A stretch of 64,000 nt of DNA from a virus. Taxonomy: Duplodnaviria; Heunggongvirae; Uroviricota; Caudoviricetes. Both the position numbers and the translations under genes were made by a program. The first letter of the stretch is position 1, and the number at the start of each line of letters is the position of its first letter. The stretch lies in IMG/VR virus record IMGVR_UViG_3300042382_000594; one strand, 5' to 3'. Below are positions 28,281 through 46,844 of this stretch, in pieces. The notes beneath the pieces are model-generated. The model searched no databases, was not told the DNA's origin, and worked only from the letters and a program-made list of their open reading frames with translations.

Positions 28281-28709
28281 TTATTCTATTTGAAATATTT
28301 TAGGCTTTTTATTATCTGGTATTACATTTCTTAGCGATACATATAACATACCATCGGATAATGATACTTTATCGACTTCAACTGTATCAGCTATGGTAAA
28401 TGTTCTAGTAAAATCTCTTTCAGCAATTCCTTTATATAAGAATTCCGAATCTTTTTTAGATTCATCTGGTTTAATTTTACCTGTAACAACAAGTTTACCT
28501 GTATCTAAAGTAACTGAGATTTGATCTTTTGTATATCCAGCAACTGCCATTTTGATAACAAACTTCTCTTCAGACTGTTTGATAATATCATATGGAGGAA
28601 AACCAGTTTGAGGCTTTTCCAATTCAGTGATTCTACGAAATAATTCGTCAAAACCAATTAATGCTGAATTATGAATTGTTCTAAAAGTAGTTAAGTCTTT
28701 AGCGTACAT
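28281..28709 (-). CDS. small heat-shock protein (Hsp20/alpha-crystallin family)
   Basis: Alpha-crystallin domain features (YDIIKQSEEKFVIKMAVAGY...SDGMLYVSL). Confidence 0.85.
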   Translation of the reverse strand: MYAKDLTTFRTIHNSALIGFDELFRRITELEKPQTGFPPYDIIKQSEEKFVIKMAVAGYTKDQISVTLDTGKLVVTGKIKPDESKKDSEFLYKGIAERDFTRTFTIADTVEVDKVSLSDGMLYVSLRNVIPDNKKPKIFQIE

Positions 28710-28790: not shown

Positions 28791-29054
28791 TTAGCCACCA
28801 GCAAAAACGTCTCCCGACCCTGACGCTGAATGGCCACAAGTAGCGGCATCGCCAGCTCGACAAACTGCAATGCCATTAACAAATACTGAACCAGAACCAG
28901 CAGCCATAGTTGGGGAATCATGAGGGGCGACCCCATGACCTGTAACTGCATCACCTTTTCTAACAGCTGCAGCTCCATTAACAAATACATCACCGGATCC
29001 AGCAGCTAATTTACCTCCAGCTGAATCCGTACCTTTTCTAGTAACTCCAGGCAT
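28791..29054 (-). CDS. PAAR-repeat protein (T4 gp5.4-like spike tip)
   Basis: Gly/Ala-rich 87 aa with repeated GDVFVNGAAAVRKGD / GSVFVNGIAVCRAGD (PAAR motifs) and conserved Cys/His. Locally GC-rich DNA. Confidence 0.6.
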   Translation of the reverse strand: MPGVTRKGTDSAGGKLAAGSGDVFVNGAAAVRKGDAVTGHGVAPHDSPTMAAGSGSVFVNGIAVCRAGDAATCGHSASGSGDVFAGG

Positions 29055-29455
29055 TATTTTTTAACTTTGCCGATGTTATATTTACTAACCAAATTATATT
29101 CATCTTTTTCTTTATACGATAAAATTTTAATTTGACTAATTGGAACTAATGGAGATTTACATTCATCTTCATGTCTAATTTCCAATAGTTCCCAATCCCT
29201 TAAAAGGTTTACAATAGTATTTCTTCTAGCAATATCATTTTCACTAATTTCATGAGATTTGTTATCCAGACCAAATAATTCTTTAAAATGGATAATTACA
29301 TATCTACCTTGTTTATGTAAGATATGACATGATTGATATAAAGTTTTATCTTTTTTAGATAATACGCCAATTCTAGATAACGTTTCTTTAATTTTTAAAA
29401 AATTATTCTCATCAATAAATACCTCAACGCCATATCCATTAAAAATGTCACTCAT
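29054..29455 (-). CDS. regA: translational repressor RegA
   Basis: LKIKETLSRIGVLSKKDKTLYQSCHILHKQGRYVIIHFKELF aligns closely with T4 RegA (LKVKETLTRMGIANNKDKVLYQSCHILQKKGLYYIVHFKEML). Confidence 0.9.
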   Translation of the reverse strand: MSDIFNGYGVEVFIDENNFLKIKETLSRIGVLSKKDKTLYQSCHILHKQGRYVIIHFKELFGLDNKSHEISENDIARRNTIVNLLRDWELLEIRHEDECKSPLVPISQIKILSYKEKDEYNLVSKYNIGKVKK

Positions 29456-29498
29456 TTTTATATTTCCTATTTATTCAAAATTATCATAATAATATATT

Positions 29499-29506
29499 TA
29501 TAAATA
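29499..29506 (+). promoter_or_regulatory. T4-type late promoter TATAAATA (plus strand) upstream of GIY-YIG gene
   Basis: Exact TATAAATA, immediately 5' of a hairpin. Confidence 0.45.
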
Positions 29507-29509
29507 TTT

Positions 29510-29540
29510 GTAAGTCGCGATGCGCTAACATCCACTTACA
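29510..29540 (+). promoter_or_regulatory. RNA hairpin (gtaagtcgcgat...acttac) between late promoter and GIY-YIG RBS
   Basis: 6-bp stem with shared tcgcgat core. A paralogous element is upstream of the second plus-strand GIY-YIG gene. Confidence 0.4.
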
Positions 29541-29566
29541 CTAACTGTTATTAAGGAACAATCAGC

Positions 29567-30208
29567 ATGAATATATATTCACCCATCAAACCAACATATC
29601 TTTATATTAAACAACATTCCATTACCGGATTAAAATATTTCGGTAAGACAACTAAAGATCCACGCACATATTTGGGATCAGGAATAAAATGGAAAAGTCA
29701 TATTAAAAAACACGGCAAACAATTTGTAAAAACTTTATGGATTTCAGATTTATATTATGATACATCAATAAAAGAAATTGCGTTACATTTTTCTACGGAA
29801 AACAATATTGTTGAATCAGATAAGTGGGCTAATCTAATCCAGGAAAATGGGTTAGATAGCGGAACTCTTACAAAAAATCAAAAAATTAAAATTTCACAAA
29901 AACAAAAATATAATTGGAATAAAAATAATTCTCCTTATAATGAAGATAGAAACTTAAAATGTTCTAATATTAAAAAAGAACAGTGGGAAGATTTAAAATC
30001 AAAATATAATTCTAATACATATAGACTTCAACAAAAAAAGCTAAAAGAAAAGCAATACGAAGTAATAAATCCAATAGGTACTAAATTTATTATAACTGGG
30101 TTAAAACAATTTTGTAAAGAAAATAATCTCTCAGAACAAAATATGTATAAAGTTTCCAATAAATTAAGAGAGCATCACAAAGGATGGAAATGTAATAAAA
30201 TTATTTAA
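29567..30208 (+). CDS. GIY-YIG homing-endonuclease-like protein (Seg-like), free-standing
   Basis: N-terminal YLYIKQHSITGLKYFGKTT (GIY...YFG) and Lys-rich C-terminal half. Lies on the strand opposite its neighbours, between regA and gene 62. Confidence 0.55.
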   Translation: MNIYSPIKPTYLYIKQHSITGLKYFGKTTKDPRTYLGSGIKWKSHIKKHGKQFVKTLWISDLYYDTSIKEIALHFSTENNIVESDKWANLIQENGLDSGTLTKNQKIKISQKQKYNWNKNNSPYNEDRNLKCSNIKKEQWEDLKSKYNSNTYRLQQKKLKEKQYEVINPIGTKFIITGLKQFCKENNLSEQNMYKVSNKLREHHKGWKCNKII

Positions 30209-30584
30209 TTACCCCGCCTTTGTCTAATATTTGTCTTATAGTTTCCAACTGCAAAGACGTAAGAATTCTTAACGCATCTTTGGCTTTTTCTGATGAATAA
30301 CCGAAATACTCTTTAATTAATGCTATGTCTTTTGATTCATTTGCTTTATACCATTTTTGAAATGGGCGTTTTTTGCTATGTAAAATAAACAAATAAAAAT
30401 CATATTGCATTTTTTTATCTAAGCCAGAATACTGATTCATTTCATTTACATATAACAAACAATCATTATGTTGGCTTAATGCGCGATTTACAATATAAGG
30501 TTCATATTCTTTTTCGTTATCAGATGTAATAATAGATTTTTTAGTTTGAAGCAATGATGGTAAAACTTCTTTAAACAAATCCAT
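30201..30584 (-). CDS. 62: clamp-loader small subunit (T4 gp62-like, by position)
   Basis: 127-aa ORF immediately downstream of gp44, as in T4. No strong motif. Confidence 0.5.
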   Translation of the reverse strand: MDLFKEVLPSLLQTKKSIITSDNEKEYEPYIVNRALSQHNDCLLYVNEMNQYSGLDKKMQYDFYLFILHSKKRPFQKWYKANESKDIALIKEYFGYSSEKAKDALRILTSLQLETIRQILDKGGVIK

Positions 30585-39865: not shown

Positions 39866-39870
39866 AAATA

Positions 39871-39880
39871 ATAAATAATA
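39871..39880 (+). promoter_or_regulatory. near-consensus late promoter (aATAAATAat) upstream of second GIY-YIG gene
   Basis: 7 of 8 positions match TATAAATA. Positioned 6-9 nt 5' of the hairpin, as at 29499. Confidence 0.3.
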
Positions 39881-39885
39881 AAAAA

Positions 39886-39915
39886 GCTACTCGCGATATC
39901 CCCATATCCAGTAGC
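39886..39915 (+). promoter_or_regulatory. RNA hairpin (gctactcgcgat...agtagc) upstream of GIY-YIG RBS
   Basis: 6-bp stem and tcgcgat core, followed by cactaa. Paralogous to the element at 29510-29540. Confidence 0.4.
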
Positions 39916-39929
39916 ACTAAACATTAACC

Positions 39930-40682
39930 GTGTTATCAAAGGAGACAACTATGTCCAGCACAAATACTTATACTGAACAAAAATACTGCGTTTATCATAT
40001 TACATACTCAGGCGATAAGTTATCACCAAAAAATAATTCAAATATAATCCCATCAAATTACATCGGTTCATCTACAATTGATAGTATTAAATCCGGTTAT
40101 ATGGGATCCATAAAATCAAAAATTTATAAAAATATTTGGAAATCAGAATTAAAAACTAATCCACATTTATTTTCTATTGAAATAATATCATATCACGAAA
40201 CTAGACCATCAGCTACCTACAAAGAATTACAAATACAAAAAATATTTAACGTTGTTAAGAATCCATTATTTGTTAACATGGCGTATGCTGCGCCAAATGG
40301 GTTTTTTGGTAGAGATGTTTCGAGAGAAAAACATCCAAATTATAATAAACCGCGAACAAATGATAGTAAAGAAAAAATATCAAAAAATCATGCAAACGTA
40401 TCAGGTAAAAATAATCCAATGTCTAACAAAATTAGAATTACTAATGGTATATTAAATTCTGCAGTAAAACATAAAAATGAAATACCTGATGGATGGTATA
40501 CAGGACTAACATTTAATACTCAACGGAAAAAAGAAACTAACCCCAGAAAAGCATATAAAAAAGAAAATAAAAATCGATCAACAAAAGGCATTAAACGTAA
40601 AAAATTTATTTGTATTATTGAAACCAAGAAAGAATACGATAAAGCAAAAGCAAAAATATATTTTCCTGAATTACCATATTAA
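39930..40682 (+). CDS. GIY-YIG homing-endonuclease-like protein, free-standing
   Basis: CVYHITYSG...NYIGSST (GIY...YIG) with a Lys/Arg-rich C-terminal half. Plus strand between gp47 and gp55. Confidence 0.55.
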   Translation: MLSKETTMSSTNTYTEQKYCVYHITYSGDKLSPKNNSNIIPSNYIGSSTIDSIKSGYMGSIKSKIYKNIWKSELKTNPHLFSIEIISYHETRPSATYKELQIQKIFNVVKNPLFVNMAYAAPNGFFGRDVSREKHPNYNKPRTNDSKEKISKNHANVSGKNNPMSNKIRITNGILNSAVKHKNEIPDGWYTGLTFNTQRKKETNPRKAYKKENKNRSTKGIKRKKFICIIETKKEYDKAKAKIYFPELPY

Positions 40683-41344
40683 TCCTCCAAGAAAGTTTCA
40701 ATTCCTTTAGCTTTTTTCTTTTTCTTCGCTACAGGACTTTTAGTGCTTTTTTTGAATTCAGTATCTTCAAATTTTTGAATAAAATCATACATATTATCAT
40801 AAACTTCAATTTGTTTAATTTGACCTTCACCAAGTTCCAATAACTCAGCTTCATCAAGAATACCGAAATTTTCTGTTGCTTTATATTTTATATACTGCTG
40901 TTTTTTTTCTTTTTGGATCCTACGAACAAAACACCACCAAAGAATCTGAGTAAAATAAGCAAAGGGATTTTTAGTTTTTGCTGAATCAAAATTTTCAAAA
41001 TACATTAAACAGTTTTCAATTCCATCAGCAATCATTTCATCTTTATATGAATACCCAAAGAAATTAGGTCTACGAGCTAATCCCTCTGATAATTTAACGA
41101 AACATTCTCCAATATAATTTGGAATTCTAGGTTTAATTTTCCCTTCAGCTTTAGCAAGAGCGCAATCAGCTTTATATTTCTCTAAAGCAGCGCAAAAATC
41201 AGCATTATTAATATATTCTCGCGTGACCTTTTTTCGTTTTACTTTAGCAACAACGGGTTTTTCTTCCGGAAGATCTTCTAATAAAGAAGGTATTTCTTCA
41301 GTAAAATCTGGAACGTCAGCAAAATCAAATTTTAATTCTTTCAT
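40679..41344 (-). CDS. 55: late-transcription sigma factor gp55
   Basis: [40 protein letters not shown] aligns with T4 gp55 [44 protein letters not shown]. Confidence 0.9.
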   Translation of the reverse strand: [221 protein letters not shown]

Positions 41345-44643: not shown

Positions 44644-46026
44644 ATGGTAAAAGTTGTAGTTTTAAAACCGGAAGAGGTAACTCCAAGACCCGATTTGGTT
44701 GGTAAATGGCTTAATGAAAGTCATTATAGAATATTAGTTGAAGAAGATTTAGATGTATATCTTCCTCCAGATTGCGCAGATTTTACTGCCGAAGAAAACT
44801 GTGATAACAATATGGAATGTAATTCTTGTCATAAAGGGTTATCTGAAAAGAATATTGTATTTAAGTTTCGTAAAAATTTCTTTAATAAAGAAGAGGCTGA
44901 TGCAGCTTACGCGGGTTTACGTGATGCAGCTGTTGAAACTCAAAATCGCGGTATGGCTGGTGGACCAAGAACTGCTACATGCGCAGGAAGAGAATGGGTT
45001 ACTGATGAACAATTTGATTTATTAGAATTCTTTGCACATAAAAATTCGACTTCAGTATTCGGCGGATATACGCCAAAGGCAGATGTTGATTTAATACGAG
45101 CCAAGTATAAAAATCTTAAATCTGATGATAGTCGTGGTGTCGTCTGGTTGACTGAGCAAATTAGAGCTGAGAAATTTGTATTTAATGACTTTATCGATAA
45201 ATTATGCGCATTAACTATTGATGAAGCAAAAGCTGAAGCTCAACGAGTATTAGATAAATTGATTAGTAAAACGACTTATGCTAATGTCGTAAATTCTGGT
45301 ATTGCTGGTTGGTATGATAGATATCCTAGAATTCCTTTTGGTAGACCAACTACCTATACAAGAGATAATCTAGAAAAGTTTTCTAAGTCTTATCCATTCT
45401 TACAATCTTTAGCTAAAGGTTTTAAGGATATGTTGCCATGGCGTTATGGTAATCAAAAACGAGCTGCAGAATCAATTGATCAAAGATTTGTTGTACCAGA
45501 TACTCCATTTACGACAATTACAGTAAATAAAAACTTTCGAACCGCTGGCCATTACGATCCAGCTAATATGGAAGATGGATTCGCTAATCTTTGTGTTATG
45601 TCAAATAATGATCAATATGAAGGATGTTATTTAGTATTTCCGGAAATTGGTTATGCAGTTGATGTCAGACCTACTGATTTATTATTAGTAAATAATCAAG
45701 CTGGATTACATGGTAATACTGAATTAAAACTAAAAGATCCAGATGCAGAAAGAATTAGTATGATTGCGTTTTTCCATGAAGGTATGTTAACGCTTGGTAC
45801 TTATGATTACGAGAATACTCGCAGAGAATTTATTGATAGTCGTAGATTAAATCCCGATCATCCAGACCAAAGATACCGTTGGAATGGCATCACTCCTGGA
45901 TTATGGGAATCTGATGAGTGGATTGATTATTTGTTAGCTCAACCGCAAGGCAAAGGTTGGTTAGAATCCTATCACAAAGATTTGTATGACCGTAGATTCG
46001 GTAACAGTTTAGATAACTTTTTTTAA
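44644..46026 (+). CDS. 2-oxoglutarate/Fe(II)-dependent oxygenase with long N-terminal extension
   Basis: HYD (HxD), then LHGNT about 60 aa later, then ERIS (RxS): the classic 2OG-Fe(II)-oxygenase facial triad plus 2OG-binding Arg. Strong AGGAGA RBS. Confidence 0.55.
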   Translation: MVKVVVLKPEEVTPRPDLVGKWLNESHYRILVEEDLDVYLPPDCADFTAEENCDNNMECNSCHKGLSEKNIVFKFRKNFFNKEEADAAYAGLRDAAVETQNRGMAGGPRTATCAGREWVTDEQFDLLEFFAHKNSTSVFGGYTPKADVDLIRAKYKNLKSDDSRGVVWLTEQIRAEKFVFNDFIDKLCALTIDEAKAEAQRVLDKLISKTTYANVVNSGIAGWYDRYPRIPFGRPTTYTRDNLEKFSKSYPFLQSLAKGFKDMLPWRYGNQKRAAESIDQRFVVPDTPFTTITVNKNFRTAGHYDPANMEDGFANLCVMSNNDQYEGCYLVFPEIGYAVDVRPTDLLLVNNQAGLHGNTELKLKDPDAERISMIAFFHEGMLTLGTYDYENTRREFIDSRRLNPDHPDQRYRWNGITPGLWESDEWIDYLLAQPQGKGWLESYHKDLYDRRFGNSLDNFF

Positions 46027-46034
46027 GGTAGATT

Positions 46035-46844
46035 ATGAAATTGAATATTGCAATTCCTTCGTATAAACGATCTGATACGCTTAGAGATAAAACTTTAAGT
46101 GTATTGGAGAAATATAATGTAGATCCAAGTACAGTAACAATCTTTGTTGCTAATGATGCCGAAAAGACTGCATACGAAACATCATTAAAAGATAACATTT
46201 ATAACAAAAATATTGTTGTGGGTGTTGTTGGTATGGGACCAATTAGAAACTTTATTAGAAATTATTATGATGAGGGGGAATTTGTTGTAAATTTTGATGA
46301 TGATTTATCGAGTATTATGCGCAAAGCTCCTGCTGATGAAAAGAAAATGGAGCCAATTGAAGATATCCATAAAGAAGTATTTGAGCCAATGTATAATATT
46401 ATGCAGGAGAACGAAAATAAGCTCTGTGGTGTCTATGCAGCGTCGAATGCGTTTTTTATGAGTTATACCCCTAAGACTGGTTTATATTACTGCATTGGGT
46501 CGCTGTGGGGCTGCATTAACGATAAACATCAAGATCGTATGGTTCAATTATGCGATAAAGAAGATTTTGAGCGAACTCTTCAACATTATGTTCTTGATGG
46601 TTCAGTTTCGCGATTAGACAATATTACTGTTATATCCAAATATTATACTGAAGATGGAGGAATGCAAGTTGAACGAACTCTTGAACGTATTGATAAAAGT
46701 GCTGACGATTTAGTTCGTAGATTTCCAGATTTATGTACAAAATACGTCCGTGAAACTACAGGTCACGCTGAATTACGCTTACGGGATACTAGTGGAGGTA
46801 AATATCAAAAATCCACTTCTTTTGGTTTAGATAGTTTTTTCTAA
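46035..46844 (+). CDS. GT-A fold glycosyltransferase
   Basis: N-terminal IAIPSYKRSD and DxD-like NFDDDL. Start lies 9 nt after the oxygenase stop. Confidence 0.5.
   Translation: MKLNIAIPSYKRSDTLRDKTLSVLEKYNVDPSTVTIFVANDAEKTAYETSLKDNIYNKNIVVGVVGMGPIRNFIRNYYDEGEFVVNFDDDLSSIMRKAPADEKKMEPIEDIHKEVFEPMYNIMQENENKLCGVYAASNAFFMSYTPKTGLYYCIGSLWGCINDKHQDRMVQLCDKEDFERTLQHYVLDGSVSRLDNITVISKYYTEDGGMQVERTLERIDKSADDLVRRFPDLCTKYVRETTGHAELRLRDTSGGKYQKSTSFGLDSFF

Follow-up and report, generated by a model that had tools for sequence, protein, structure and literature searches.

A predicted Seg-like homing endonuclease gene and its late-promoter, bulged stem-loop leader at the 62/regA junction of an uncultured T4-like phage

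The locus and its nuclease gene

The stretch of DNA analysed here, called the window hereafter, is 64,000 nucleotides long and belongs to IMG/VR record IMGVR_UViG_3300042382_000594. Its source is an uncultured T4-like myovirus whose closest cultured relatives are cyanomyoviruses, with about 45% DNA polymerase identity. Genes 62 and regA, adjacent in T4, are separated in the window by an open reading frame (ORF) on the opposite strand that codes for a predicted free-standing homing endonuclease; we call it the homing endonuclease gene (HEG). Its leader combines a T4-type late-promoter element, a stem-loop with two bulged cytosines, the invariant motif CTAA and a Shine-Dalgarno sequence (SD). 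The coordinates of all features are given in Table 1. The position of the plus-strand ORF between regA and gene 62, read from the bare sequence in an earlier note, is confirmed by the ORF analysis and by profile matches. The 3' ends of the HEG and of gene 62 are convergent and overlap by 8 nt; gene 44, a dsbA-like gene and gene 45 are found beyond gene 62. Orientation is strongly biased in the window, with 67 of the 71 ORFs of at least 90 amino acids on the minus strand, and the plus-strand ORFs of this size are only two HEG-like genes and the pair 44644-46026 and 46035-46844. GenBank phages gave no match to the locus by megablast nor to the leader by sensitive blastn.

The HEG product is identified, from sequence and modelled fold, as a free-standing Seg-like GIY-YIG homing endonuclease whose activity is predicted. 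Fold comparison finds the GIY-YIG alpha/beta fold, and this comparison alone settled the assignment because the sequence-profile routes were negative or marginal. The whole protein has no Pfam match to PF01541 nor to PF19835 (SegE_GIY-YIG). Aligned to the isolated N-terminal domain, PF01541 scores 14.2 bits (E 0.054), below the cut-off of 22.6, and it weakly matches 10 of 120 family members, with a best E of 2.9e-4. NCBIfam and a profile search of PDB sequences gave no match for the protein, hhalign against I-TevI was negative or marginal, and Foldseek against the PDB picked up the C-terminal module alone. Two-sequence BLASTP searches relate the protein to T4 SegE (E 3e-4) and SegD (E 0.004) with about 37% identity over 51 residues, and the three have in common the Seg-type motif pattern Y-x-Y...G-x-K-Y-[IF]-G-K...Y-[LM]-G-S-G...I-K-K-[YH]-G. 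Two tyrosine-containing motifs 10-11 residues apart, together with a glycine, characterise GIY-YIG proteins. They are present here as Y13 (YLY) and Y24-F-G26, which are 11 residues apart, invariant or nearly so in 120 sequences, and aligned with the motifs of SegD, SegE and I-TevI. The fold comparison, the similarity to SegE and SegD and the presence or absence of the gene among near-identical phages (see below) bear out the earlier note, which had proposed a free-standing GIY-YIG endonuclease gene.

The catalytic set of I-TevI (R27, E75 and N90) was compared through alignments, without residue-level structural superposition. N89 is invariant and aligns with N90 of I-TevI. For E75 the best candidate is E70, a position occupied by E or D in 26 of 29 sequences; the register is uncertain. 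No conserved arginine occupies the R27 position: depending on the alignment, position 41 is K, H, Y or R, or the R27 helix is absent. In a MAFFT alignment T4 SegD and SegE also have no arginine at this position. The nuclease domain is joined to a separate DNA-binding module of the I-HmuI/HNH-HEG type, the last 55 residues matching the DNA-binding part of HNH-type homing endonucleases (phrog_2081, E 1.5e-9, and K1E gp40.5-like proteins). The family has at least 1255 members, with a very conserved N-terminal domain of 98 residues and interchangeable C-terminal modules (NUMOD3, DUF7487 and others), and an identical protein is encoded on 17 contigs.

Insertion at the 62/regA junction

A search of IMG/VR for relatives of regA yielded phages devoid of the HEG whose regA is 97-100% identical, and 99-100% in close relatives (related contigs L013, L016-L020, L024, L025, L027 and others). 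Gene 62 and regA overlap in these HEG-less loci (ATGA) without any ORF between them, and the gap between the two genes is 746 nt in the HEG-plus arrangement versus -3 in the HEG-less one. When the window is compared by blastn with L013, L016, L025, L021 and L028, homology to the HEG-less genomes ends at 29478 and restarts at 30259. The junction alignment sets HEG-plus ...TTTTGAATAAATAGGAAATATAAAAATG against HEG-less ...GTTGATAAAACAGGAGTTATAAAATG. The HEG is a mobile insert, because it is present or absent among near-identical phages whose flanking genes are intact.

The insert is accompanied by a change in its neighbour. The recoded end of gene 62 codes for amino acids similar to those of the HEG-less alleles with most nucleotides changed, and the remaining gene is 92-95% identical at the DNA level. 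This suggests that the recoded end is an immunised or replaced target region. The whole pattern is suggestive of a homing cassette and corresponds to what would be expected once its target, the 62/regA junction, is destroyed or immunised. The HEG-plus/HEG-less pair and the recoded gene end offer a ready prediction of the target site for biochemistry.

In distant T4-like phages, too, insertions recur at the 62/regA junction, which is a hot spot for them. A co-oriented ORF, judged HNH-like by eye, is found there in L043 (2393-2986) and L060. L066 has at this junction a classical GIY-YIG ORF (2228-2836), antisense and with the same hairpin, and L076 and L085 carry a 295-nt insert.

The late promoter and the bulged stem-loop

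The exact TATAAATA which the earlier note had reported upstream of the HEG is confirmed. Over the whole window this element shows no enrichment (16 copies for 19.0 +/- 4.3 expected); of the nine intergenic copies, eight sit 28-61 nt upstream of a start codon on the same strand. In the 160 nt upstream of 47 non-redundant relatives of the HEG ORF, TATAAATA is on the coding strand in 37 regions and on the opposite strand in 3, with a background of 0.018 per region. A T4-type late promoter, also part of the earlier proposal, is well supported as a consistent property of the family because of this coding-strand recurrence. Extrapolation from T4 late-promoter geometry predicts a transcription start at about A29512. 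Sigma-70-like sites are found in the window at chance level (18 against 14.9 +/- 3.6). The minus-strand TATAAATA precedes the regA ATG by 40 nt, a distance typical of the other intergenic copies on that strand (28-47 nt upstream of starts), and is absent from HEG-less relatives. It may be a late promoter for regA brought by the cassette.

The stem-loop downstream of the promoter has an outer and an inner stem, between which C29516 and C29518 are bulged on either side of a G29517-C29533 pair. The segment 29507-29545 folds with -10.1 kcal/mol (z-score -3.49), and none of 200 shuffles is as stable. The hairpin noticed in the earlier reading of the sequence is real by this measure, with a different geometry. 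Its stem begins 2-3 nt after the promoter (T29509 or G29510) and not 4 nt after it. A 7-bp outer stem, two bulged cytosines and an inner stem replace the plain 6-bp hairpin that had been described. Its end, put at about 20 nt before the ribosome-binding site (RBS), is actually separated from the SD by 12 nt and from the AUG by 26 nt. The leader belongs to a short class with the consensus ...aaGGAgtAtCAGCATGA. The same architecture recurs upstream of relatives in quite different genomic contexts: a variable outer stem of 6-7 bp closed by an invariant T-A pair, a C, an R covarying with a Y, a C, an invariant G-C pair, a variable inner stem of 3-4 bp, a variable loop of 5-8 nt, and then N-CTAA.

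RNAalifold, to which the structure was not given, retrieved the same two stems with compensatory changes in 8 of 10 pairs. For the named structure, 97.8% of the cells are paired versus 68.4 +/- 1.7% in shuffles and 30-42% in slid registers, and double-change cells number 114 versus 35 +/- 6 in shuffles. The covariation score of 0.856 compares with 0.252 for shuffles, none of which reached 0.856 in 500. Nine of 11 pairs change on both sides, with four pair types at some positions. The sequences of the covariation alignment had been chosen with a stem filter, and the analysis was hence repeated with a pairing-free pattern scan of IMG/VR. This pattern contained only invariant, unpaired or closing positions, and a match was counted as paired when 4 or more of the 5 outer pairs and 2 or more of the 3 inner ones were Watson-Crick. 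Its 122 matches are bimodal, with 63 paired and the others random-like; bacterial and archaeal genomes, scanned with this pattern, had 120 matches of which none was paired, one being borderline. Judged by covariation, the hairpin is a genuine, selected element. G-U pairs are nearly absent (2 of 407 cells and 7 of 344 cells in two sets), and non-Watson-Crick cells are too few for G-U versus A-C counts to assign the strand. Complementarity between loop and flanks, sought as a sign of a pseudoknot, is no better than with shuffled loops. A search of Rfam 15 with 29380-29650 at E up to 10 gave no relevant match, the best being symR on the opposite strand (18.8 bits for a gathering value of 61).

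The covariance model finds only two copies of the element in the window, at 29509-29540 (50.9 bits, E 3.6e-10) and at 39880-39927 (56.6 bits, E 1.2e-11), followed by a next best match of 14.4 bits. Both precede HEGs. The second copy folds with -10.8 kcal/mol (z-score -6.7), and the HEG-like ORF that follows it is antisense between a gp47-like gene (start at about 39853, minus strand) and gp55 (40679-41344, minus strand). A paralogue of this second HEG is located at a different site, between gp44 and dsbA, in sister contig L002 (8066-8764). The two proteins are 60% identical, their 80-nt leaders are identical at 79 of 80 positions, and the flanks are unrelated.

Across 79 related loci, all 67 matches of the covariance model are on the HEG strand, and each additional match has an SD about 20 nt further on and then a HEG-like ORF. 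The pattern-scan set amounts to 43 unique sequences, of which 39 have an ORF 18-32 nt after the end of CTAAYCATT. Nearly all of these ORFs begin with M-[TS]-S-x-x-[IT]-Y, after which their bodies diverge. The bodies under the leader are members of the present family, classical GIY-YIG proteins, several SegE-like or unassigned proteins, and a few HNH-like ones (L232, L237, L287 and L043, from motifs seen by eye with no Pfam confirmation). BLAST clustering of the downstream proteins was uninformative owing to shared C-terminal repeats. Among 29 hairpin-bearing cassettes, 22 are antisense to their neighbours and 7 co-oriented. The long class of leaders keeps C-AGC at codons 2-3 though residue 2 varies (T, S, I, P or A), Ser3 being AGC in 52 of 53 leaders in L092-L293; the short-class equivalent is CAGC just 5' of the ATG. 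CAGC is apparently constrained at the nucleotide level. In the scans made, the leader appears confined to viral contigs and to leaders of HEGs, with no match in Rfam 15. The literature searches did not find the bulged-hairpin leader. What is new is the promoter-hairpin leader as an arrangement for HEG regulation, the gene itself being a member of the known Seg-like class.

In all 25 hairpin-bearing leaders with a located promoter, the promoter is 5' of the hairpin, which places the hairpin core in the 5' untranslated region (UTR). The distance from promoter to hairpin is variable (2-56 nt) and that from hairpin to ATG constrained (23-35 nt). Nine of these leaders, including that of the window, have a promoter spacing of 2-5 nt, so that the predicted start falls at the base of the stem. 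In the 16 leaders with a spacing of 8-56 nt, the whole hairpin would be transcribed. Leaders with a far promoter, about 40-56 nt upstream (L097, L111, L126, L130, L136 and L170), have a conserved ctattatataac... after the promoter, then a second small variable inverted repeat and an A-run that abuts the hairpin; a further promoter-like or structured element may be present in them.

A second subfamily of the same nuclease, with the N-terminus MKPTYLYIK, is devoid of the bulged hairpin (L095, L099-L101, L113, L119-L122, L147, L154, L156 and L158). In its members, a terminator hairpin that is rich in GC and has a T-run immediately precedes TATAAATAcatatag, itself situated about 35 nt from the ATG, and no SD is obvious. 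They are always co-oriented and come after an ORF of about 445 amino acids.

Table 1. Coordinates of the HEG, its leader, the insertion junctions and neighbouring features (window positions unless a contig is named)
Feature	Position	Strand	Remarks
HEG ORF	29567-30208	+	213 amino acids; predicted N-terminal nuclease domain ~residues 1-100; predicted C-terminal DNA-binding module ~156-212
TATAAATA, T4-type late-promoter element for the HEG	29499-29506	+	exact match
TATAAATA on the minus strand	29495-29502	-	part of the perfect palindrome TATTTATAAATA (29495-29506)
Bulged stem-loop	29509-29540	+	outer stem 29509-29515/29534-29540 (7 bp); inner stem 29519-29522/29529-29532; 6-nt loop 29523-29528
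Invariant CTAA	29541-29544	+	directly 3' of the stem-loop; invariant in the leader alignment and in 37 unique covariance-model matches
SD AAGGA	29553-29557	+	9 nt before the ATG; then conserved CAGC (29563-29566)
HEG-plus segment	29479-30258		780 nt; ~32 nt in its place in HEG-less close relatives
Degenerate remnant of the ancestral gene 62 3' end	29456-29478	-	still gives the regA SD AGGAA (29468-29464)
Recoded gene 62 3' end, last 19 codons	30201-30258	-	TSLQLETIRQILDKGGVIK versus HEG-less TPEQIDKIKEVVDKTGVIK
HEG-less 62/regA junction	L013 2940-3010		...CTTACTCCTGAACAAATTGATAAAATTAAGGAAGTTGTTGATAAAACAGGAGTTATAAAATGAGTG
Gene 62, clamp-loader subunit	30201-30584	-	PF16790, phrog_225
regA	29054-29455	-	PF01818, E 1.8e-37
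Second leader copy	39880-39927	+	hairpin 39886-39915; CTAA 39917-39920; AATAAATA upstream at 39870-39877
Second HEG-like ORF	39951-40682	+	243 amino acids, MSSTNTY...; weak NUMOD3 match
PAAR-motif gene	28791-29054		87 amino acids; PF05488, E 3e-10; directly downstream of regA
ORF in place of the PAAR-motif gene in sister contigs	L002/L003 5221-5385		54 amino acids
Hsp20-family gene	28281-28709		next after the PAAR-motif gene; dCMP deaminase and DNA polymerase genes near

Function of the leader and its relation to known systems

On balance we lean, with moderate confidence, towards a mobile Seg-like HEG cassette, antisense at 62/regA and equipped with its own late leader, in which the hairpin would be a 5'-proximal element of the mRNA. 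The portable leader of about 100 nt would consist of the late promoter TATAAATA, the stem-loop with its two bulged cytosines, CUAA and a pyrimidine-rich single-stranded spacer, the SD and the AUG, and in most relatives would also take in the first few codons. The stem-loop would act in the late HEG mRNA as a structural or protein-binding element, recognised probably via the bulged cytosines and CUAA. In the window it would be essentially at the 5' end of the mRNA because the start is predicted at about A29512. The element would determine mRNA stability and/or the level of translation, the nuclease being made late and at a controlled level wherever the cassette lands. We favour a role in the late mRNA because the element lies between the late promoter and the SD and its position is tied to the translation start, and we infer that its functional form is plus-strand RNA acting as a stabiliser or an operator. 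Several observations weigh against this interpretation. The near absence of G-U pairs is unusual for a constraint on RNA and would fit a DNA hairpin or an element of both strands equally well. The start site is extrapolated from T4, and a promoter 8-56 nt upstream leaves the hairpin in a position that is not 5'-terminal. In the close-spacing class, complementarity is perfect even for the outer-stem bases that are predicted to precede the start. A simple 5' stabiliser leaves the invariant bulged cytosines, CTAA and the C-AGC of codons 2-3 unexplained. Finally, the sequence directly preceding the stem is rich in A in 55 of 75 instances, a feature that resembles the U-tract of a terminator on the opposite strand.

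The earlier note had read the leader as a translational switch of the I-TevI/seg type. In the T4 mechanism the hairpin contains the RBS and forms only in longer early or middle transcripts, the late promoter being inside the hairpin (Edgell, Gibb and Belfort review, PMC2988022). A gate of this I-TevI/segB/mobE type would silence early read-through, and late transcripts starting in the 5' arm would be translated. Arguments for it are the TATAAATA 2-3 nt before the stem and the predicted start, which lies in the arm as the note had supposed, eliminates 3 of the 7 outer pairs (3 of 12 in total) and weakens the hairpin from -10.1 to -4.5 kcal/mol. The remainder still folds, however, and 16 of 25 relatives have their promoter 8-56 nt upstream. 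Accessibility is slightly lower in long leaders (0.49 versus 0.57), and the minimum free energy fold of one long transcript has a weak long-range pairing of UUCCU 29464-29468, the complement of the regA SD, with AGGAA 29554-29558. This pairing was rejected, with an ensemble frequency of 0.006 and a z-score of -1.3 for the long fold. The gate is contradicted by the 12 nt that separate the end of the hairpin from the SD, inclusion of the RBS being its defining feature (PMC2988022). In folding predictions for 30 leaders, the SD-AUG region is equally accessible whether the hairpin is present (0.574) or absent (0.575), and truncation of the 5' arm gives 0.51. The effect of truncation is opposite to that in the T4 I-TevI control, which behaves as published, its accessibility passing from 0.29 in long transcripts to 0.51 in those that start from about -25. 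By these predictions the stem-loop does not mask the RBS. There is also no plus-strand ORF of at least 90 amino acids in the 29 kb upstream within the window, so that no source of read-through is found there, and sigma-70-like sites are at chance level. The silencing of early read-through put forward in the note thus finds no support, and we regard such a gate as largely refuted by geometry and very improbable here.

An element acting at the DNA level is unlikely too, yet it is still a candidate because G-U pairs are scarce, bases predicted to be untranscribed are paired, and a stabiliser explains neither the bulges nor CAGC. It would be a hairpin or cruciform in single-stranded or supercoiled DNA, recognised by a protein through the extrahelical cytosines and CTAA, with a role in mobility, shuffling or promoter activation. 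The almost strict Watson-Crick pairing without one-sided changes at any pair speaks for it, as do the covariation of outer-stem bases predicted upstream of the start, the fusion of the same leader to many unrelated bodies, and the location at the exact left border of the conserved cassette, where identity passes from random to 40/40 at 39880. However, the position of the element is tied to the start codon and not to the promoter or the cassette end, it is always found in the 5' UTR, downstream of a promoter-like sequence, it has no associated recombinase, and homing requires no cis site in the donor. The stem-loop could instead be the cis-recognition site of a structure-specific partner. This partner would act either on RNA, as a dedicated regulator of HEG translation or stability, or on single-stranded DNA, where the hairpin would guide nicking, priming or recombination and the leader would capture and exchange nuclease bodies, by analogy with integron attC sites or IS200/IS605 ends. 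This appears quite unlikely to us; if true, the cassettes would be a distinct class of mobile elements and not ordinary HEGs. We judge improbable that the element is an intrinsic terminator or insulator of the minus strand, whose U-rich tract after the hairpin would stop or process transcripts crossing the antisense HEG. The antisense position of 22 of 29 cassettes agrees with this role, and so do the minus-strand fold of -11.5 kcal/mol, the UUUUUUAUUAUUUAUUAUUUUU that follows the second window copy on that strand, and the A content just before the stem, where 55 of 75 instances have 5 or more A among 8 nt (background A frequency 0.40). Runs of at least 5 A are nevertheless found in only 32 of 75 instances, the copy at 29509-29540 has no such tract (minus strand ...ACUUACAAAUAUUUAU) and a terminator scan finds none. 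Termination there would moreover stop transcription ahead of regA and gp47, which lie 55 and 33 nt further on, and would explain neither the bulges, CTAA and the fixed distance to the HEG start nor the 7 co-oriented cassettes. That the hairpin has no function, being a chance inverted repeat or part of a leader spread recently as a unit, is hardly credible. The leader is indeed nearly identical between some cassettes, but stems that differ widely keep their pairing, with 9 of 11 pairs changing on both sides, and the bulged cytosines, the G-C and T-A pairs and CTAA are invariant. None of the 200 shuffles folds as well and none of the 120 cellular pattern matches is paired; we consider this reading refuted by the covariation.

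The gene resembles those of the T4 Seg proteins (SegA-G) in being free-standing between conserved genes, present or absent among phages, and in its N-terminal motifs and modular C-terminus; it is antisense to its neighbours like T4 segD (PMC2988022). It differs from the T4 Segs in its limited identity, about 37% over 51 residues, in its C-terminus of the I-HmuI/HNH-HEG type and in its location, 62/regA not being a T4 seg site. Regarding the leader favoured above, late and limited expression is the likely purpose that it has in common with the leaders of I-TevI, I-TevII, I-TevIII, T4 segB and Aeh1 mobE. In those, however, the hairpin contains the SD and the AUG and is restricted to longer same-strand early or middle transcripts, whereas here it is 12 nt upstream of the SD. 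The one published case of a stable hairpin just upstream of a seg-like RBS that it does not include is that of seg43(25) in Aeromonas phage 25 (PMC2988022). Its perfect 8-bp stem (GGGGTTAT/ATAACCCC) is 1 nt away from the SD and lacks both bulges and CTAA, and the covariance model does not match it; we thus reject homology and see an analogy only. The covariance model did not find the bulged-hairpin leader in the T4 regions examined or at the locus of Vibrio phage SRILMA.

The promoter-early stem-loop (PeSL) cassettes of T4-type phages consist of a terminator followed by an early sigma-70 promoter (PMC2839356, PMC4122927). They are also short conserved modules of promoter and stem-loop placed before variable genes, with unrelated bodies, a likeness that suggests recombination at the module. 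The present leader differs by its late promoter, which is followed by a bulged non-terminator hairpin in the 5' UTR, and by its exclusive association with HEG-like ORFs; its plus strand has no T-run and no terminator call, and sigma-70-like sites in the window are at chance. Stem-loops that stabilise an mRNA from its 5' end, such as that of the E. coli ompA 5' UTR, are near the 5' end and apart from the RBS, and they need no conserved bulges or flanking motif. The location near the transcript 5' end and separate from the RBS is alike here, but the C bulges and CTAA, being invariant, suggest that recognition is sequence-specific.

Free-standing HEGs need late, low-level expression wherever they are inserted. 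To our knowledge, the RBS-masking hairpin of T4 intron endonucleases, segB and mobE is the only understood solution to this need. The leader described here would be a second and different one, self-contained in about 100 nt and reused by many unrelated nuclease bodies in either orientation. As a concrete cis-element open to testing, it allows one to ask how selfish nuclease genes are kept insulated from the genomic context around them.

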